From contig JAFGOA010000108.1 in NCBI GenBank assembly GCA_016926735.1, forward strand, positions 1 through 31,859: DNA of 31,859 nucleotides. Direction: 5' to 3'. Position numbers and translations under genes: made by a program. The notes beneath the pieces were generated by a model. The model was not told the DNA's origin, did not search any database, and saw nothing but the letters and a program-made list of their open reading frames with translations. Origin of the DNA: Promethearchaeota archaeon. GTDB taxonomy: Archaea > Asgardarchaeota > Lokiarchaeia > Sigyniarchaeales > SOKP01. Below, piece after piece: positions 8,477 to 21,057 of the stretch (positions are counted from its first letter, which is position 1; every line of letters begins with the position of its first letter).

Positions 8477-11413
8477 TTGGACATAAAAGAAATTGAGCTT
8501 TTAATCTTAAAAGGCAAATACGAAAAAGCTACTTATCAATTATTTGAGCTAATAGATTTATATAAATCGGAAATTGATAAAGAAGATCTTTATAATTGTC
8601 TTAATCTACTTAATTTAATTTGTGATAAATCTCCAAAAATTTCTTTAGAAATAACTAAAGATTTATCTTCCTTTATAAATGACCATAATTCATGGATTAG
8701 ATTAGTTACTTTAGAGATTTATTATCAAATTTCAAATTATAGGCCTAATTTATTGATTGAGTTAATTGATAGAATAAATTCTCGATTATATGATAATGAT
8801 CCCTCTGTTAGAAGAATAGCTGTAATGATTATTGGAAATCTAATATCTACCTTGTATTTCGAATCTAATGAATTAGATGAGATTGTAAAAGAATTTAATG
8901 AAAAATTAATGGATAACGATTGGAAAGTTAAATTACAAGTAATAAAAACAATACAAAAAATAATTATTAAAGACTATACTAAAATAAGAAATTTAGAACC
9001 TCTTTTATCAATGGTAATAATCACTCTAAGAGATGAAGATGAGGATGTAGCTCGAGCTTCAGCAATTTTATTAAAAAATATCGGTAATTTCTATATTTCT
9101 AAAGAAAAAATGTTTTATATTCTTCTTTATCTTTGGCATAATGAGAATAATCGAGTTAAAGAACTAATTGTTTGGTTATTTGGTGAGATTGGAAAAGAAT
9201 CATCTTCAGAAATAATTCCTTTTATTCCAAAGATAATCAAATTTTTGAAAATAGACGATTTTAACATTCAATTAAAAGTAGTAGAAGCATTGAACTCTAT
9301 AGCGTTAAATAATTTTGACCAGATATGGGCAAATATAATCCATACAATTTCCACTATTAGCGAAAAATCTTATAGAAATTCTCTAGGAAATGTCATATAT
9401 CAGTTATCTCAACAACACATTGAACAAATATTTCCCTTTTTAATAGAAGAGTTGGAAAATCCCTCAGAAAATGTAAGAAATACTATTATAATAGTTTTTA
9501 AACGCTTATATGATGAATATAAAATTGAAATTGAAAATGAAATTACTCGAATTCTTTACAAACTTGAATCAAAATATTGGAGAGAAAGAAAAAAAATAAT
9601 TCAGTTATTAAAAAACATTATTCTTATTCTAAGAAAAAAGAAAATTGCTGTATGGATAACTATTGAACTCAACAAACTATTAAAACAAGAGAAAGATCTT
9701 GAAGTCTATGATGAGATTAAATATGCATTAGGAGTAATAAAGAATCAGTTTTCAGATATTGATGATTATATTGAAAAGATAAATGAGGATTTATTGTTTT
9801 TAAAAAACAAAATCAAAGATTTTCAAAAACTTCCAGCACAATTCAGGAAAAAATTAAATTCATATATTAAAAATTTTCAATTTAATATGACACAAATCCA
9901 ATTAAACCAAATGTATAATGATATTTTAGCTAAAATTCAAGATTTTCATAAAAAAATTAACCAATTCGAATTTAAAAGATTAGCTTTCAATTTAATAGAA
10001 GAATGGGAAGAAACTAAAATCCAAATTATTGAAGAATTAGATATTATTAAAAATTTTATCGTTAAAATCTGTGAAGAAAAAAAGGAAGAATTCAAATTAA
10101 ATTTAGAAGTACAAATTAATTTACTTATAGATAGAATTGATATTTTAAAAGCTCAATTCGATTTTATCAAAGAAAAAGATATTGATGATGAGATTTTAGA
10201 AAATATTGATTTAAATTGGTATCATGAGCCAAATATGCAGGATAAGTTTGATTATTTCTCATTATTGAGAAAAAACTTATTTATCCTTGATGTTGAAATA
10301 AGAGAAATGCTGATTAATAACATCGAATTTGATGATATTTTTAAAAATCTATTAAGTACTTGGGTAGATGTAAAAGTAGAAATACAAATGTATTTAAATA
10401 ATTTAGATAGAAAGATTAAAGACATAAAAAAAATGATTGTAAAAGATTTAACCCTCGTTGAGGCTCATGGAGAAAGTTCTAAATCTAAAAATTTTTCGGG
10501 TTTAAATGATGAATTATCATTTCAAATAGTTCAAGGTCATATTCAATCGATAATCTCATTTGGAATAGAAGGTATTAAAAAATTAGATCAGAATTTTGAA
10601 AATCTTTATTCTAAACTTGATATATTAGTTAAAACTGGAAGATTTGATGAGTCTAAAAAATTAGTTGAAATAAATTCTTCTCAAATTAAATCATTTATAA
10701 ATGAAACAGAAAAACAAATTGATGGTATAATTGAAAAAAAAGATGGATTTAAAAAAAATCAAGATGGATTCGATCTATATATTCGTCCCTTTATTGATAA
10801 ATGGAATAATTCTAAAAATTTAATAATTCTAAAACTTAAAAAATTTGTTTCAAATAGTAAAGAAACAATCTATTTGCACGAAATTAAAAATTATTTGAAA
10901 ATTATAAACCCTGTTGATTTTGAACTAATCTCAATGTATATTGGATTAGATGAAAATAAAATTAAGGAATTAGCTTTAAAATATATACAAGAAGGCAAAT
11001 TAGATGCTAAAATAATTGATAATTCGTTATACTCATCTAAATTTGATTCAGAAATACCTATATTTAAAGAATTGAATTTATTTAAGAAAGTTAAATCAAT
11101 AGGCAATCAAATGGAGATAGATATGAAAATTAGCAATCCTTCTCACTATGATTTTACAGATCTTCAAATTATCCTTAAAATCCCACCATATTTAAAATTT
11201 TCAAAGGAAGAAAGTTTTCCAAAATTTTCTCATATTGAAAAATTAAAGGCAAATAGTAATTTTAAATTCAAATACTTACTAAAAATAGATAAGCAAAACC
11301 AAGAAAATCTAATGGATCATTATCAAGATGAGATCAATTTTATAATATATTATAAAGGACCCTATGAGATTTCAAAAAAAATATCAAAAAAGATAAATCT
11401 TCTTTTATCATAG
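8477..11413 (+). CDS. large HEAT-repeat/coiled-coil protein with PCI-like winged helix and C-terminal beta-sandwich-like domain
   Basis: 978 aa, TTG start. HEAT motifs include LYDNDPSVRRIA, LMDNDWKVKLQV and LRDEDEDVARAS. PCI-like segment: VDFELISMYIGLDENKIKELALKYIQEGKLDAKI. The C-terminus is beta-rich (MKISNPSHYDFTDLQIILKIP). Confidence 0.75.
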   Translation: MDIKEIELLILKGKYEKATYQLFELIDLYKSEIDKEDLYNCLNLLNLICDKSPKISLEITKDLSSFINDHNSWIRLVTLEIYYQISNYRPNLLIELIDRINSRLYDNDPSVRRIAVMIIGNLISTLYFESNELDEIVKEFNEKLMDNDWKVKLQVIKTIQKIIIKDYTKIRNLEPLLSMVIITLRDEDEDVARASAILLKNIGNFYISKEKMFYILLYLWHNENNRVKELIVWLFGEIGKESSSEIIPFIPKIIKFLKIDDFNIQLKVVEALNSIALNNFDQIWANIIHTISTISEKSYRNSLGNVIYQLSQQHIEQIFPFLIEELENPSENVRNTIIIVFKRLYDEYKIEIENEITRILYKLESKYWRERKKIIQLLKNIILILRKKKIAVWITIELNKLLKQEKDLEVYDEIKYALGVIKNQFSDIDDYIEKINEDLLFLKNKIKDFQKLPAQFRKKLNSYIKNFQFNMTQIQLNQMYNDILAKIQDFHKKINQFEFKRLAFNLIEEWEETKIQIIEELDIIKNFIVKICEEKKEEFKLNLEVQINLLIDRIDILKAQFDFIKEKDIDDEILENIDLNWYHEPNMQDKFDYFSLLRKNLFILDVEIREMLINNIEFDDIFKNLLSTWVDVKVEIQMYLNNLDRKIKDIKKMIVKDLTLVEAHGESSKSKNFSGLNDELSFQIVQGHIQSIISFGIEGIKKLDQNFENLYSKLDILVKTGRFDESKKLVEINSSQIKSFINETEKQIDGIIEKKDGFKKNQDGFDLYIRPFIDKWNNSKNLIILKLKKFVSNSKETIYLHEIKNYLKIINPVDFELISMYIGLDENKIKELALKYIQEGKLDAKIIDNSLYSSKFDSEIPIFKELNLFKKVKSIGNQMEIDMKISNPSHYDFTDLQIILKIPPYLKFSKEESFPKFSHIEKLKANSNFKFKYLLKIDKQNQENLMDHYQDEINFIIYYKGPYEISKKISKKINLLLS

Positions 11414-11595: not shown

Positions 11596-12624
11596 ATGAA
11601 CAAAATAGAAGATTATAGATTGACTTCTCAAGTAAAGATCCATGGATGATCATGCAAACTAGGTCCATTAAAATTAAAAGAATTACTTAATAGCATCGGA
11701 TTAGGAGAGCAATTTGAAGATGCAGCAGTTATGCCTATTAATGGAACTGATTTAGTATTGGTAAAAAATCTTGATATTTTTACTCCTATTATTGACGAGC
11801 CTGAGATAATGGGTGAAATTGCAGCTTGCAATGTTACTAGCGATATTTTTGCTATGAATATTCCTGAAATAAATGCTGGAATGCTTGTTTTCTTAGCAAT
11901 AAAAAATAACACTCCCATAGAAATTGCTGAGGGAATTCTTAAAGGCATTAAAAAATTTATGGAAAAAATAAACTCAAAAATATGTGGAGGGCATACAATA
12001 TATTGTGAATGGCCTTTAATTGGAGGAGAAGCTTCATGTATCGCTAATAAAGATTGGATTGTCAAAAAAAATGGTGTTAAAAAAGGAGATAAACTAGTCT
12101 TAACCAAACCAATTGGCATACAAGGAGTGATGGCTGCTTATCGGATATTAAAAGAGACTCCTGAACTATTGAATAGCTATTCTGATAATGAATTAAAAAA
12201 ATCTATAGATATGGCAATTAAGGTAATGACCACTCCTAATCAGAATGTTATAAAAACAATCCATTCTTTCAATGATTTTTCTTTTATTCATGCGATGTCC
12301 GATGTAACAGGATTTGGCTTAGCAGGTCATACAAAAGAAATGTTGCAAAATTCAAATCTTTCAGCAATTCTCAAGACAATACCTTCAATCATGCTCTCTA
12401 AAGAATTATCTAATGAATTTGGATATGCTTTTAACGAATGTAATGCTCATGAAACAGCAGGAGGACTTTTAATTGCTGTTGATCCTAAAAAAGTAGAAGA
12501 ATTTACCAATACTCTTTCAAGTAAAAAGATATCTAATTGGATTGTTGGTGAAATAGAGAAGGAAGGATCTAATGATGTTAGAATTTCTAAAAAAATAGAT
12601 TATTTAGAAATTTATAATTTTTAA
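11596..12624 (+). CDS. selD: selenophosphate synthetase (selenide, water dikinase); selenoprotein with Sec at codon 18
   Basis: SD-like GAGGT, then ATG 11596 reading MNKIEDYRLTSQVKIHG-TGA(11647-11649)-SCKLGP, in frame with the 11731 ORF. Downstream motifs: EDAAV, DIFTPI, SDIFAM, GGHT, LTKPIG, DVTGFGLAGH and ETAGGLL. 342 aa. Confidence 0.95.
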
Positions 12625-12699
12625 ATGATGTCAATGATGTAAGTTAAAACGCATTTAGCGACAACTTATTAAGATTTACACCTGTGAGGTGTCATCATT
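12624..12699 (+). promoter_or_regulatory. eukaryote-like SECIS element in the selD 3' UTR
   Basis: AUGA at 12634-12637; stem GUAAGUU/AACUUAU; apical AAAA; mini-helix CGC/GCG; GA at 12673-12674; basal AAUGAUG/CAUCAUU pairing. Confidence 0.75.
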
Positions 12700-12713
12700 A
12701 ACATTTTATCACA

Positions 12714-13531
12714 TTATCTACTTATGTTTCCTCCGAGTTTAAGAATTATCTCTTTTATTTTTTTAAGGATCGTATTTACCATCTTTTCACATTCAGAATC
12801 ACCAAAACAAGTAATTACTAATTCAATTTCTACATTTGGTCCTTTTTTTGGATGAGTTTTTATCCATAATCTAGAATATTCTTTTTTTAATTTACTAATA
12901 TAAGGAGCTATCTGAGATTCTCCTATATTCGAAAAAAAAAATCCTTTTTCAATATAAATCCCTTTTCTTTCTTCTAAAATAGGATAAATGTGGTTGGTAA
13001 ACATTGATTTTAATTCTTGAGGTACTCCTGGTAATAAAAAGATCGTTGTATTATTAATTAAAATTTTAACTCCCGGAGCAGTTCCTTCTGTGTTAAATAA
13101 TGGAACTGATTCATTTGGCATATAAGCCATTTTTTTTCTCTCATGAGTCATACCTTTAAGTTTCAATCTTCCTATTTGATTTAAATTTTCATAAGCCTTT
13201 TCTACCAATTCATAAGCTTTCTGATTTAAAACTAATTCTCTTCCAAGTCCTATAGAGATGCCCTTTGTTGTCATATCATCATATGTTGGGCCTTTGACTT
13301 TAGAATGAAATCTTTCTAAATTAATCCGCCCGATGTTATAACAATATTAGGTTTTCTGTTAATAATTTCTTTAATTGCATTTGAGATTTCAATGAGATCA
13401 TCTCCAACTGTAGTTATTCTCGAAAGTATATGTCCATTTTCAATAATTTTTTTTGCCATCCAATGAGAATTTGTATCTTGAGTATGACCATTGAGAACTT
13501 CATTTGCGATTATTAAAAGTTCTATAATCAT
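12714..13531 (-). CDS. cinA: CinA N-terminal / COG1058 molybdopterin-binding-fold protein; spliced as join(13531..13322, 13292..12714), 262 aa
   Basis: Exon 1: IANEVLNGHTQDTNS...TVGDD...ITSGGL. Exon 2: GPTYDDMT...KMAYMP...GTAPG...LPGVPQE...GESQIAP. Removing 29 nt restores both the frame and the GGLGPTYDDMT motif. Confidence 0.85.
13293..13321 (-). other. putative 29-nt bulge-helix-bulge intron in a protein-coding gene
   Basis: The minus strand reads GGGC GGAU UA|A UUUAGAA agauuuca UUCUAAA GUCA AA|G GCCC: exon helix, 4-nt central helix, two 3-nt bulges and an intron hairpin. Confidence 0.8.
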
Positions 13532-13647
13532 ATAAATTAAAAATTATCTTTTGTAAAAAATATGCATGAAATTTAATTTATTATATATCAAAGAATTGAA
13601 ATGTTTCAATTCATTTTCAATTATATAAAAGAAACTAATATATAATA

Positions 13648-14220
13648 ATGAATTCTAAACCAAAAACAATCGAAATTGATGATAGTGGTACAGGTGATCT
13701 TGTTGGAGATGCATTTATTGGGTTTCATGTAATTGAAACGGGTCAATTATTATTTAAAGAAATTCCTGTTAATCTTTATAATGATAAAAATTTAAGTAAA
13801 GGTGCTCCTAAAAAAAGAATTCTTCAAGTAGTTAAAAATGGATTGGAAGAATTAGGATATAATAAGGATATTGATAAAATAAGGCTTTGTAGAGGTGATT
13901 GTTTTGATATGGTTAGAATCTATTTTGAAAAAAACGCTATTTATTATGAACCCTCTGTTATCGATGGTATTTTACAAACTGCTGTAGAGGCAAAATTTGT
14001 TACTCATTTAAGAAATTTGGGCGTTAGATCGAAAAATTTAACAATAGAAAGTGGAGCAAGGAGGTATTTTATCTTATTTAATTGGGTCTATCGTGATTTT
14101 CCTAAACGCGAAAAATATGTAAAAAGTGGTTTTAAAAAATGGAAATCTGTATGGAGAGAAAGAGCTATTGAAAATTATAAAAAACATAAAAATTCTACCT
14201 ATAAAAAAAAACGTGAGTAA
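13648..14220 (+). CDS. conserved archaeal protein with RNase H-like N-terminal motif
   Basis: IEIDDSGTGDLVG resembles the first-strand acidic motif (DExGxG) of RNase HII/HIII; the C-terminus is basic. Confidence 0.55.
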   Translation: MNSKPKTIEIDDSGTGDLVGDAFIGFHVIETGQLLFKEIPVNLYNDKNLSKGAPKKRILQVVKNGLEELGYNKDIDKIRLCRGDCFDMVRIYFEKNAIYYEPSVIDGILQTAVEAKFVTHLRNLGVRSKNLTIESGARRYFILFNWVYRDFPKREKYVKSGFKKWKSVWRERAIENYKKHKNSTYKKKRE

Positions 14221-15179: not shown

Positions 15180-17066
15180 ATGTCAATAACTCCATTATCC
15201 CAAAATGAAATACAGAGTATAAGAGATTTTATCGAAAAGAATGGTTGGTATCTGAAGGGATATATTGAAAATATTTTTCGGTTTAGTTTAAGAAAAGATA
15301 AAACCTTAATTTTAACTGTTAAATTCCCAGCTGTACTTCCTATTCGATTAAATATCCCATTTGAATTAGCTAATTTTAAAATTTCCTTGATGTTTAGATT
15401 TTGGAATTTAGACACAAATGTATATGATTTTATTCAATATCTCCAGAAAAGTATAAGAGATCTTGCATTGATTATTTCGATTGAAAATAATTTTCCTACA
15501 GAGGGTAGAGAAAAAACATTACTCCAACTTTTAAATCTTATAATACCTGATTTAATAAGAAGCGAAAATGAAAGAGCATGGGTAAATAGAATTCGTATTT
15601 CATTAATGAATAAAAGAGAAGATCTCCATGAAATAAAACCAGAGGAAATAAAATCAATTGTTAATGAATTAGAAAAAATTGGCCTTAAACCAACATTTAA
15701 ACATCCTTGGGAACTTAATAATGGTATTCCAAAATATAGAACTTCTGAAACAATATTTTTCTCAACAGAGGATGTTTTTGATGAATTTTTTATATTTGAA
15801 AAGGATTTTTTTACTTATTTTAAAGATTTAAGAGTAAAAAAAATATATATACGATCCTTTTTTGAAAGTTATAGCCCATTATTAATACAAAAATTATTTG
15901 AAGATGTTAATGAAGTCCAATTAAAAGATTTAGTGAATTATTGGATAAAATTTGCTCGTTCTTTATTGAATTCTATTATAGAGATAATAGAAAAATATAA
16001 TCTAAATGAAAATATTCTATCGACTTTTTCTCCAGATAAAATATTTGAATTTGATGATTTCTTAGAGGAAGAAAATAATTTTCCTCTTTCAGCACTTCAT
16101 TATGAATGTCTAATAACAAAGGCTTTATATCCAATTCATAACGATTTATTAACTGTACCTCCAAATGACTTTGAAGTAATTGAAAATTTAAGTTTATATA
16201 CTAAAGCTGAAGAACTTATGAATAACTACAAATTTAAGGAAGCTACAGATATTTTAACAGAAGCGCTTAAGGTTTTTAATAAATATAAACAAAAAAAGTT
16301 AGTCGTATCAATATTATTATTCCTAAATAAAATCGCTTTAATATTAGATCAACATGATATTGCAGTAAATTATTTAGAAAATGCTCTTTCAGTTGCAAAA
16401 TCTGGAGAAGTTCCAATAAAATATATAATTGATATTCATTATAATGTTGCAAAAATATATGTCAAACTAAAATTTTTTGCAAGAGCTAAAGAACATTTTG
16501 ATATTATTCAAAAATTTTTAGAAAATGAAGAATTAAAATTCGAAGAAAAAGAAGAATATCAAGGATTATCTTTAATCTTTCTTGGATTAATTGCTCAAGA
16601 AATTGAAGAAAATGCAGAAGCAAAAGAATATTATAAAAAAGCATTTCAATTAGGGAATAAATCCATTAAAGTAAGATTAAAATATCATTTAATGAGAGCT
16701 AAATATTATAAAAAAAAAGGAAAATTACCAATAGTACAAAAATTTCTTAAAGCTGGACTATTAGATTTAGATTTCACATCTATTGATAGCAGATCTAAAA
16801 ATATTTTTACAAATTTATTGATGGAGATTGCTGAATATTATATTCATGATAGAACAGACAGAAAAAAAGCGAATTATTACCTTGAGGGAATTAAAAAATC
16901 ATTAATCGTTACAACAATATCAGGAATTAAGAAATCAATTCGATGGAATCTATTAATGAATGATTTCTATAAATTTTTAATAGATGATCAACAAAAAGCT
17001 CAATTTTATTTTAAAAAAAGTCAAGAATTACAAAATCAGCTAAGAATAATAGGATTAAAAGAATAA
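15180..17066 (+). CDS. TPR-containing protein
   Basis: 628 aa. The C-terminal half has TPR-like units (YKFKEATDILTEAL, AVNYLENALSVA, AKEYYKKAFQL). Confidence 0.75.
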   Translation: MSITPLSQNEIQSIRDFIEKNGWYLKGYIENIFRFSLRKDKTLILTVKFPAVLPIRLNIPFELANFKISLMFRFWNLDTNVYDFIQYLQKSIRDLALIISIENNFPTEGREKTLLQLLNLIIPDLIRSENERAWVNRIRISLMNKREDLHEIKPEEIKSIVNELEKIGLKPTFKHPWELNNGIPKYRTSETIFFSTEDVFDEFFIFEKDFFTYFKDLRVKKIYIRSFFESYSPLLIQKLFEDVNEVQLKDLVNYWIKFARSLLNSIIEIIEKYNLNENILSTFSPDKIFEFDDFLEEENNFPLSALHYECLITKALYPIHNDLLTVPPNDFEVIENLSLYTKAEELMNNYKFKEATDILTEALKVFNKYKQKKLVVSILLFLNKIALILDQHDIAVNYLENALSVAKSGEVPIKYIIDIHYNVAKIYVKLKFFARAKEHFDIIQKFLENEELKFEEKEEYQGLSLIFLGLIAQEIEENAEAKEYYKKAFQLGNKSIKVRLKYHLMRAKYYKKKGKLPIVQKFLKAGLLDLDFTSIDSRSKNIFTNLLMEIAEYYIHDRTDRKKANYYLEGIKKSLIVTTISGIKKSIRWNLLMNDFYKFLIDDQQKAQFYFKKSQELQNQLRIIGLKE

Positions 17067-17367: not shown

Positions 17368-17500
17368 ATCTTCCACTTCTTATTCTTTTGAACTACTCAC
17401 ACCTAAAGGAGTGAAATTTGTAGGTTACTAATTAATAGATTTTTAACTCTAATGGGTGGTTCAAGCACCCTCTATCCCCTATCCATTGGGATTTAGGGAC
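17368..17500 (-). ncRNA. predicted omegaRNA (reRNA) scaffold plus guide from the flank
   Basis: GC-rich structured segment (GGGTGCTTGAACCACCC) overlapping the tnpB 3' end and the right-end hairpin. The guide would begin AAGAAUAAGAAGUGGAAGAU. The 5' limit is unknown. Confidence 0.45.
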
Positions 17501-18725
17501 TTCTTTTTGTAAAATATTAATGGATGCATTTACATCGGCATTTAATACCATTCCACAATCCTTACATACATATAATCCTCGATACTTTCGGTTTGACTTG
17601 CGAATCACACCACAAGAAGAACATGTTTGTGACGTATATTCTTCACTCGTCCGAATGACTTTAATTCCGACCATCTCTGATTTGTATTCGATTTGTTGGA
17701 CAAGCTTTAGGAATGGCACAGAGACAAAGTTTTGATTATTTTTCTTCTCAATATGTATCTCTTGTTTCCATCTCTCATTATATCCGATGATAATCAATCC
17801 AATATTATTGGAAATACAATAATTAACAACTGTTCGGGATGTTTTGTGAAAAAAATTCTTCACTTTATTGTTCCGCTTTCGATGAAGCTTTTTTATTCGG
17901 TTCGTTATTTCCATTTTATTGCACTTCTTGGCAATAGCATTGTATTTTGACAATTGCTTATTATAGAATTGATTAATTGACTTTATCACACCGCCTTTGA
18001 TAATCAATGGGGTATTTCCAATATTATCTGACGCAGTTAAGATGTTAGTAAGCCTCAAATCGATCCCTAAAGCATTTATGCCATTCAAGTGCAAATCCTG
18101 TGGGTCATAATTATAGATCAATTCAATAGTATATCGGTCTCCAAAAGGTACAATGCGAACTCCTTTCACCATTGTAAGATCAGTCTTTATTCTTGGAAAT
18201 CCTAGTTTTTCCATTTTTCTCGTGAGTAGAACAAATTCCTCTTTTAATCTACACTGTAACGATGTGAAATAGACGATATTGCGCTCATTTTTACGCTTGT
18301 ATTGTGGTAATTTTGGTCTACCTTGGTACTTTACTGGATATATTTTCCATTTTTTCATTGATTTAAAAAAACTCTTGAAGTTGTTATCTACTTGTATTAA
18401 AACTTGTTGAGGAGGATGAGAACCACATATTTTTTGTAATTTTTGATACGCATCATGCGATTTTAACACCTTATATAATTCATTATATCGGATCCAATGA
18501 CGATCTTTGAAGAATCGCTGTCTAATCAGGTAAGTTGCAACATTATAGAGGTTTTTTGAGAGAAAAGTGATTTCATCCAAGATTTTTGAGGATGTAAATT
18601 GAACTTGTCGAACGAGTTGCATTAGGTATTGGTATATTTTTATTGCTTTTAAAGCATGAGAGAGTCAAGATTTTTTTATGTAAAATTCATCACTCACCTA
18701 AACTAAAAGAGGGTGGTTTCTTTTG
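17388..18725 (-). mobile_element. IS200/IS605-family, tnpB-only (IS1341-like) element
   Basis: On the minus strand, the left end TCTAT|CAAAAGAAACCACCC...TTTAGGTGAGTG and the right end TTCACTCCTTTAGGTGTGAG-TAGTTCAA share TTTAGGTG in direct orientation. The right end finishes in TTCAA. There is no tnpA. Boundaries are inferred. Confidence 0.7.
17432..18622 (-). CDS. tnpB: RNA-guided endonuclease TnpB
   Basis: SKNLYN, RPKLPQYK, RuvC-I GIDL, EEYTSQTCSSCG...CKDCG zinc finger and RuvC-III NADVNASINI. Confidence 0.93.
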   Translation of the reverse strand: MQLVRQVQFTSSKILDEITFLSKNLYNVATYLIRQRFFKDRHWIRYNELYKVLKSHDAYQKLQKICGSHPPQQVLIQVDNNFKSFFKSMKKWKIYPVKYQGRPKLPQYKRKNERNIVYFTSLQCRLKEEFVLLTRKMEKLGFPRIKTDLTMVKGVRIVPFGDRYTIELIYNYDPQDLHLNGINALGIDLRLTNILTASDNIGNTPLIIKGGVIKSINQFYNKQLSKYNAIAKKCNKMEITNRIKKLHRKRNNKVKNFFHKTSRTVVNYCISNNIGLIIIGYNERWKQEIHIEKKNNQNFVSVPFLKLVQQIEYKSEMVGIKVIRTSEEYTSQTCSSCGVIRKSNRKYRGLYVCKDCGMVLNADVNASINILQKEVPKSQWIGDRGCLNHPLELKIY

Positions 18726-20228: not shown

Positions 20229-20346
20229 TTTATTTTATATATTTGATTTCTGAATCCTCATTAAAATTAATTAACCTAAAAAAGGATAAAAAATTAATTT
20301 GATTAACATTAATATTGATACTTATAGTGTTATATGCTTATAATAT

Positions 20347-20450
20347 GGGGACTTGGCGCAGCCCGGTAGCGCGTTAGCCTCCAGAGTTAAAATAAAAAGA
20401 ATCTTTCTTTTTATGAGGAATGGTCGAGGGTTCAATTCCCTCAGTCCCCA
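20347..20450 (+). tRNA. trnW: tRNA-Trp(CCA) with a ~30-nt intron-like insert at about position 43/44 (20391-20420)
   Basis: Acceptor GGGGACT/AGTCCCC; D arm GCGC/GCGC; anticodon arm TTAGC-CTCCAGA-GTTAA (CCA at 20381-20383); T arm GAGGG-TTCAATT-CCCTC. Removing 30 nt leaves 74 nt. The 3' CCA is not encoded. Confidence 0.9.
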
Positions 20451-21057
20451 TATAAATACTTAGAAGAAATCTGCCCTAATTAAGATAAAACTATTTGATT
20501 TAATGAAAGCTATCATAAATCTCTATTCCTCAGAAAAAGTAATAAAAAAAAAGAAAAAAGATTTATTTTTAATTATTCAATTTTTTTCCAATTTGGAGCC
20601 CATTTTTCACCCTGTGGATTTAGTGCCCATTTATTATTACATTTTAAGCACCAAAAACCAGTTCCAGTTTTTACTACGGTATTTTTCTCACAATCTGGAC
20701 ATTCAGTCATTATAATTATAGATCATCTTTTAACTTATAAAAATATTTATTTTCTTTTTAAGAATAATCGTAGAAATAAATACTATAAAGTATAATTCAA
20801 TTAATTTCCTCGATTCTAGATAAATAATAAATCGAATTAAGATTCTTGCGAATTAAAAAACAATAATAGAATTTGATTAAACGGGAAGTTTTTTTTATTT
20901 AAAAACTATGACATAAGTTATCAAGAATCAAAATTATATATGTATATAATCCGTTCATCTTGTTCTACCTCCTCAGTCCCTACTTAAATGTGCAGAAGAA
21001 CTCTGCATAAACTAAACCTATAATAATTTATTCAATAAAGACTATGGTAAATCTCTA
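20439..21057 (+). repeat. degenerate 87-bp direct repeat (20439-20525 and 20971-21057) starting in the tRNA 3' end
   Basis: Manual ungapped alignment gives about 61/87 identities. Both copies start CCTCAGTCCC and end TAAATCTCTA. Confidence 0.7.
20573..20710 (-). CDS. small zinc ribbon protein (45 aa), absent from the ORF track
   Basis: Manual translation: MTECPDCEKNTVVKTGTGFWCLKCNNKWALNPQGEKWAPNWKKIE*, with CPxC and CxxC motifs. Confidence 0.75.
   Translation of the reverse strand: MTECPDCEKNTVVKTGTGFWCLKCNNKWALNPQGEKWAPNWKKIE

Follow-up and report, generated by a model that had tools for sequence, protein, structure and literature searches.

Can a protein-coding gene of an Asgard archaeon that is broken in the middle of a conserved motif still give an intact product? 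The question is raised by a stand-alone COG1058/cinA-like gene at positions 13531-12714 of the minus strand of the window, i.e., the whole 31,859-nt stretch of DNA analyzed here. Unspliced, this gene reads as two ORFs of 71 and 186 aa. We argue that the insert between its two parts is very likely a genuine mRNA intron, spliced by proteins in the manner of the cbf5 intron of other archaea, and that the source archaeon (genome G000) very probably splices many mRNAs.

The insert and its host protein

COG1058 proteins carry two signatures, GXEX3G and GGL/IGPX3D (PMC3680494), and the insert splits the second one between Leu and Gly. When all excisions of 2 to 59 nt with a length of 2 mod 3 were tried near this site, the motif was restored solely by removal of 29 nt, in two equivalent registers, one of which is the BHB register. 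Across the resulting junction, the matches to Pfam PF00994 and NCBIfam NF002977 are contiguous, with no residue gained or lost (Table 1). The signature Asp lies upstream of the first ATG in the second piece. An earlier note, made from the letters alone, had described a 29-nt insert that splits the motif between L and G, shifts the frame and holds a stop, the removal of which gives one 262-aa ORF with no change of residue; coordinates and domain matches agree with this description in full, and both cuts do fall after the second bulge base as claimed, in one of the two equivalent registers.

Table 1. Features of the cinA gene in the window and sites of inserts in other genes
Feature	Position	Strand	Remarks
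Exon 1	13322..13531	−	70 codons; PF00994 2-66, NF002977 1-70; ends at the GGL half of the signature
Exon 2	12714..13292	−	192 codons + stop; PF00994 67-143, NF002977 71-242; starts with the GPX3D half
Candidate BHB intron	13293..13321	−	29 nt; frame shift and in-frame TAG
TAG	13316..13318	−	terminates the unspliced frame after 71 aa
Outer exon-exon helix, 5' strand	13328..13331	−	4 bp with 13288-13291
Outer exon-exon helix, 3' strand	13288..13291	−	pairs with 13328-13331
Central 4-nt helix, 5' (exon) strand	13324..13327	−	
Central helix, 3' (intron) strand	13295..13298	−	3/4 pairs in the source genome
5' 3-nt bulge	13321..13323	−	predicted cut between 13322 and 13321
3' 3-nt bulge	13292..13294	−	predicted cut between 13293 and 13292
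Intron hairpin	13299..13320	−	7-bp stem (13320-13314 with 13305-13299) and 8-nt loop
Insert sites on G000 contig C50	76347-76376, 5629-5657, 42170-42201		
Insert sites on other G000 contigs	C143:3050-3079, C17:29832-29863, C235:10264-10293, C4:54826-54855, C62:12420-12448, C188:20431-20461, C108:9843-9872, C119 about 16691-16722		
dnaG insert	G000 C192:7776-7806		
Split rtcB (L057-L061)	G015:C222, G120:C295, G143:C2, G052:C3, G018:C13		

The fold proposed in the same note stands in part. The helices, bulges, stem and G.A are all present, but in the source genome, where the central helix consists of three pairs and one G.A, the minimum-energy fold leaves this helix open (−11.7 kcal/mol vs. −9.1 kcal/mol for the BHB), and its pairing probability is 0.02. 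Because the central helix is absent from the minimum-energy fold, the cinA motif in the source genome is a relaxed and not a canonical BHB. The presence of the insert in DNA, on which the note's reading depended, holds as well: a contig from an independent assembly (run X2, study P2) covers 13223-13700 without a gap and differs by 20 substitutions, and the insert in the congener G003 is identical to that of the source genome; the insert is therefore not an assembly error. An Rfam search of 12600-13700 with E up to 1 gave no match. A group I or group II self-splicing intron was rejected as a candidate, since the insert has 29 nt and one hairpin compared to a ribozyme core of hundreds of bases.

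The host protein is a stand-alone COG1058 domain, unlike the two-domain bacterial CinA, and is devoid of a PncC (NMN deamidase) domain; it falls below the NCBIfam equivalog cut-offs. For an intron-less orthologue, the best solved match is Thermoplasma Ta0487 (PDB 3KBQ; E 1.5e-28), which is alike in the GGL/IGPX3D signature and in the single-domain form typical of archaea, and CinA N-terminal domains also match. COG1058 occurs alone in archaea, and those of its bacterial members that have been assayed are ADP-ribose pyrophosphatases (PMC3680494); in Thermus CinA, Mg is bound by Asp-76 (PMC4246079). The spliced product would probably be an ADP-ribose pyrophosphatase of NAD recycling. The GGL/IGPX3D signature spans the junction in all 11 insert-bearing genes that we collected, with GPTxDD kept in 11/11; in the GXEX3G signature of G000 and G003, the Glu and the last Gly are kept and the first Gly is replaced by Ala. 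No second cinA copy was found in G000. Homologues in public sets are named Lokiarchaeota or Promethearchaeota, among others, and include products of 185-192 aa of the exon 2 kind (P0001-P0004, P0020, P0045, P0092, P0102, P0116); among the 120 matches listed, there was no close intron-less or spliced-looking full-length protein, the best full-length match being at 61%.

In most loci of the family, cinA faces a convergent selD. In the window, selD (about 11600-12624, plus strand) scores over the TIGR00476 cut-off; a TGA that lies in frame ahead of its called ORF is probably a selenocysteine codon. Divergent from cinA, 13648-14220 (plus strand) encodes a conserved 190-aa archaeal hypothetical protein that is weakly RNase HII-like (0.77). 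The window also encodes a HEAT-repeat protein of 978 aa that weakly matches PCI at its C-terminus (8477-11413) and a TnpB/IS605 OrfB gene (17432-18622).

Same-site inserts in relatives

A cinA match is present in 121 of 135 family genomes and in 35 of the 36 good assemblies, and missing from 14/135. A first search revealed the insert in 6/30 loci, and the family search of 135 genomes added three. Thus, the site is interrupted in 9/135 family genomes, by 29 or 30 nt and always with a stop; by genus, the insert is found in 4/4 genomes of g1, 1/2 of g9, 1/1 of g13 and 3/54 of g11. A junction pattern run over 161 genomes of the class (the 135 of the family and 26 others) gave 13 matches, nine of which are cinA and four unrelated, the latter being about as many as the 5 control matches; these four extra matches were rejected as not cinA, and none of the 26 genomes outside the family had a same-site cinA insert by this pattern. 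Loose pattern scans of metagenomes and genomes yielded at least three cinA loci with the insert among the 238 listed, one of them a new variant. An apparent cinA split in G014 was discarded as an N gap. All 11 insert variants block translation within 1-7 codons and append unrelated tails of 1-7 aa. Both forms exist: the 29-nt inserts cause a frameshift, and the 30-nt inserts are in frame with a stop.

Pairing is largely kept. Over 10 distinct cinA rows, the outer helix is paired in 37/40 cells, the central helix in 37/40 and the first seven stem pairs in 67/70, with a complete central helix (4/4) in seven rows. G011, G015 and G107 have 4/4 central pairs at a pairing probability of 0.70-0.99; in G000, G003 and G002 (genus g1), the central helix has the G.A and a probability of 0.02-0.03, and in G001, G099 and G067 the probability is low too (0.01-0.09). 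In the gap-free alignment of the six 30-nt rows, 96.8% of cells are paired compared to 21-67% with slid partners; among 500 shuffles, 18 reach the paired fraction and 72 the compensatory-pair count, which is 2. Covariation within cinA alone is supportive but modest, and part of it may come from the g1 stem having slipped by one pair. Of what the earlier note had proposed to compare among orthologues, presence and absence are clear, with the insert in four genera beside intron-less sisters, and covariation is modest.

Exon codons are frozen under the helices only: the Leu codon under the helix is TTA in 11/11 insert-bearing genes vs. 8/29 intron-less family genes, the first Gly codon under the helix is GGY in 11/11 vs. 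5/29, and the first codon of exon 2 is GGA in none of the insert-bearing genes vs. 13/29. When genera are compared, the rise in synonymous identity is found mainly at codons −4 to −1 (0.78 vs. 0.25-0.39). Finally, dN/dS values of 0.08-0.23 in five diverged pairs that include an intron-bearing gene indicate purifying selection on both exons.

Splicing machinery and other interrupted genes

G000 has two EndA genes (PF01974), located on contigs C33 and C100 and both over the TIGR00324 cut-off. One encodes what we take to be the catalytic Tyr/His/Lys pattern, and the second is without the His of that pattern. Such a pair would be expected of an alpha-beta (heteromeric) enzyme, the kind that has been linked to cbf5 splicing and to relaxed motifs (PMC2738675). 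A search of the G000 assembly revealed no RtcB, which is present in 126/135 family genomes and 3/3 congeners. Because the rtcB locus of a congener starts with 34 nt that match the end of G000 contig C232, the absence of RtcB from G000 fits an assembly gap. The suggestion of the earlier note that this organism splices mRNA with EndA and RtcB thus gains from the comparative tests and from the presence of EndA alpha and beta, and lacks its ligase in the assembly at hand. ARAGORN predicts introns in many tRNA genes of the G000 assembly. One intron-bearing tRNA gene lies in the window (20346-20451); it is called Glu(ttc), a call that may be wrong, as the anticodon would be CCA judging by the bases that precede the insert. 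A further 21 tRNA genes, mostly intron-less, are clustered at C157:7086-13605; the cluster may be a mobile element, or the contig may be foreign.

Other protein genes are interrupted in the same way. A scan of G000 that combined the BHB with frame joining (codon filter, at least one outer pair, −4 kcal/mol or better) gave five sites, with cinA as the best, compared to none in any of six decoys with altered bulges and 0-4 in seven decoys with shifted cuts. Of 14 scan candidates tested with Pfam, eight held; L068, L074, L075, L078, L079 and L080 were rejected as two separate genes each and not introns. A relaxed scan gave no excess over decoys; its candidates were picked by eye from familiar motifs and counted only after orthologue checks, after which four more genes held. 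As the earlier note had anticipated for apparently frameshifted genes, twelve further genes of G000, each checked against orthologues, appear to hide introns: they have exact intron-less orthologues and a same-site insert in at least one relative. These are nadE, an AMP phosphorylase-like gene, an AIR-synthase-related gene, and genes for an aldolase, MoxR, a POR subunit, thioredoxin, PEBP, aEF-2p, DnaG, an E1-like protein and Pfk. The inserts in these genes, relatives included, have 29-40 nt and fall in motifs that we recognize as catalytic or nucleotide-binding; some of the genes are cut inside a codon (phase 1 or 2). An EF-2 match was dropped as an essential factor, being without the domain IV motif that the second paralogue has, and is listed as aEF-2p. 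The cbf5 gene of G000 has no insert at its motif.

G000 has a single copy of dnaG, and the gene is interrupted in 11/24 genomes with a match, one of which is from another family; in the longer dnaG inserts of L405, L406, L408, L410 and L411 (37-40 nt), the 3' motif stands twice at the end, in near-identical copies. rtcB itself is interrupted within a conserved motif, at one site, in 5/135 family genomes from three genera; its insert has 29 nt and a perfect central helix, with 24-28 of the 29 positions identical across the three genera. In the inserts pooled over 14 genes, the central helix is complete in 52/59 distinct inserts and has at least 3/4 pairs in all, compared to 4/4 in at most 3/59 in seven slid registers; this count is circular in part, as 11 of the 14 genes came from the BHB scan. 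In cinA, rtcB and pfk, whose sites were not picked by the scan at that register, the central helix is complete in 19/21 inserts vs. 0-3 in slid registers; for rtcB, the BHB register was chosen among three equivalent ones. Exon-intron compensatory changes occur in the inserts of aldolase, AMP phosphorylase, aEF-2p and dnaG.

At two of 13 intron loci, the host gene is partially duplicated and also has a free-standing nuclease-like neighbor; cinA has neither. L453 (C50:40709-41854), with a LAGLIDADG_3 match at E 0.011, lies between aldolase and a duplicate of aldolase exon 2 and has two relatives elsewhere in G000 (C95, C163). L454 (C143:777-2855), an HNH-like ORF (atlas 0.77, a lead only), adjoins nadE, part of which is duplicated upstream. 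Both L453 and L454 are possible free-standing homing endonucleases. At C231:23906-23944 and C50:73881-73925 of G000, scan matches look like in-frame TGA codons in genes that, by motif, are presumably hydrogenase delta-subunit-like; these sites are probably selenocysteine codons and not introns.

Alternatives, distribution and significance

Several lines of evidence point to an EndA-type mRNA intron in cinA: the insert recurs at the same site in four genera, the BHB register is kept, the insert blocks translation, the exons are under purifying selection, and EndA is present. In the model that we propose, the pre-mRNA would fold into a relaxed BHB, heteromeric EndA would cut after the second base of each bulge, and RtcB would join the exons. 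The spliced mRNA would then be translated to the 262-aa stand-alone COG1058 enzyme, and unspliced RNA would give a 71-aa stub without the metal-binding Asp. We suggest that the intron is most probably a passenger that the host tolerates. Because it sits in an invariant motif, only its exact loss would be viable, and because the tRNA machinery would remove it, it would cost little.

The alternative that survives best accepts the intron as real and holds that it is kept as a regulator, with splicing capacity gating NAD recycling or with a role for the stub or its tail; it is compatible with splicing and concerns the persistence of the intron. The cbf5 intron has been proposed to act as a negative regulator (PMC2738675), nadE of G000 also bears an intron, and G011, G015 and G107, which belong to three genera, have the same stem (16/16). 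However, only 9/135 family genomes carry the cinA intron, scattered over the tree, the tails of the unspliced products are unrelated, and the 13 host genes share no common pathway. We therefore regard a regulatory role as unlikely and the tolerated passenger as the better description.

Far less probable is translational recoding, in which the ribosome would shift frame, read through or hop over the hairpin and the RNA would not be cut, T4 gene 60 being an example of ribosome hopping. The stop after the break and the stable hairpin in cinA do resemble a bypass signal, in which a stop right after the break is followed by a stable hairpin, and cbf5 was itself once confused with frameshifting (Yokobori 2009, PMC2738675). 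However, the 29- and 30-nt inserts would need different frame changes, and the last exon 1 codon, TTA, is without a matching landing triplet in all 11 inserts. Moreover, the cuts within codons in other genes are impossible for a ribosome, and what is conserved is exon-intron pairing in the EndA register.

We give slightly less credence still to a pseudogene, i.e., an insert that inactivated a dispensable gene and a hairpin that is incidental. The gene does lack a match in some family assemblies, almost none of them good ones; G107 has an extra stop at exon 1 codon 18, which is missing from the near-identical contig L158; and dN/dS is somewhat higher in g1 pairs (0.15-0.23) than in four intron-less pairs (0.06-0.11). 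Against this, ten of the 11 insert-bearing genes are without any other lesion at 55-93% protein identity to the source gene, dN/dS is far below 1, the source genome has no further copy, the same pattern occurs in the single-copy dnaG and in rtcB, and synonymous sites are frozen exactly under the helices. The least credible alternative, that 71-aa and 186-aa polypeptides assemble as databases annotate them, can point to the ATG six codons into exon 2 and to public products of matching length, but translation would then skip the six codons ahead of this ATG, and yet GPTxDD, including the signature Asp (PMC3680494, PMC4246079), is invariably kept, and G067 has Ile in place of the internal Met.

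How the cinA intron came to its present distribution was addressed with a quick tree of 47 rows (11 intron-bearing genes, 29 of about 110 intron-less family genes and seven genes from other families). On this tree, the intron label needs seven changes, at least four of them forced by starred branches, and a single clade of intron-bearing genes is rejected (p-AU 1.7e-5). The inserts are homologous. A single old intron may have been lost many times, or the intron may have spread sideways; we lean toward sideways spread. No co-conversion tract was detected at cinA, where synonymous identity is not raised beyond the four codons before the junction, or at rtcB, where there is only a bump at codons 10-20 downstream based on few sites. 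None of the 11 cinA inserts contains an ORF, and the two nuclease-like ORFs have no match in 20 cinA intron loci with about 1.5 kb of flank (less for some). A BHB intron encoding a homing endonuclease was accordingly rejected for cinA, the usual neighbors occurring with and without the intron, and so was the divergent 190-aa neighbor as a partner of the intron, as it adjoins intron-bearing and intron-less genes alike. Altogether, the cinA intron appears to be one of at least 13 mRNA introns in G000, and it has probably moved between, or been lost from, lineages repeatedly.

The closest known parallel is the BHB intron in the cbf5 pre-mRNA of Desulfurococcales and Sulfolobales (Yokobori 2009, PMC2738675). 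It has 16-44 nt, an often relaxed BHB, a position in a catalytic motif, variable length and frame, hosts with a heteromeric EndA, and presence and absence among relatives. It differs in phylum and gene and in being one intron that is ancestral with few losses; the source genome, in contrast, has at least 13 introns, and its cinA intron is sparse and scattered. Moreover, cbf5 splicing was shown experimentally, whereas we infer that of cinA from sequence. The same paper mentions predicted, unconfirmed introns in other genes and a virus. In the accessible text of PMC7714728, only cbf5 is reported besides the BHB intron of Haloferax volcanii HVO_1309, which is likewise an EndA substrate in an mRNA, but lies in the 5' UTR and breaks no frame. 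A preprint on non-canonical tRNA introns in Asgard archaea (bioRxiv 10.64898/2026.10.13.758758) describes two EndA paralogues in 44/60 genomes. These introns share with ours the phylum, the motif, repeated gains and in-cell splicing that is so far predicted; they concern tRNA genes only, and the words "mRNA" and "cbf5" occur 0 times in the main text. Archaeal rRNA BHB introns, which comprise forms with homing endonucleases and their deletion derivatives (PMC2738675), have a similar patchy spread over conserved sites, but the 11 cinA inserts have no ORF and cinA has no nuclease-like neighbor. Our literature search, which covered titles and the start of abstracts, largely outside the subscription journals, found neither cinA nor any Asgard protein gene reported to have a BHB intron.

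In the accessible text of the papers found, cbf5 alone is named as having BHB introns inside an archaeal coding region. If 13 such introns in one genome are real, mRNA splicing would be routine in an Asgard lineage, which would bear on a pre-eukaryotic origin of intron-containing genes and of non-spliceosomal mRNA splicing by tRNA enzymes. We see roughly even chances that this extends to the whole family, i.e., that the tRNA endonuclease and ligase splice at least a dozen BHB introns of about 30 nt per genome from the active-site codons of genes with core functions (primase, NAD synthetase, phosphofructokinase, ubiquitin E1; in a few relatives also rtcB), and that these introns invade conserved motifs and are mobile between genera, with free-standing homing endonucleases assisting in trans. 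Annotation treats genes interrupted in this way as truncated or hypothetical, and metabolic reconstructions and gene-loss calls for Asgard archaea may therefore err, as for dnaG, nadE, pfk and E1. For intron gain and loss, named by the Asgard tRNA preprint as the central open problem, a test is offered by sister species that differ in the presence of one and the same intron. If the family-wide reading is true, the closest prokaryotic relatives of eukaryotes would have an intron-rich pool of protein-spliced mRNAs, independent of group II introns.
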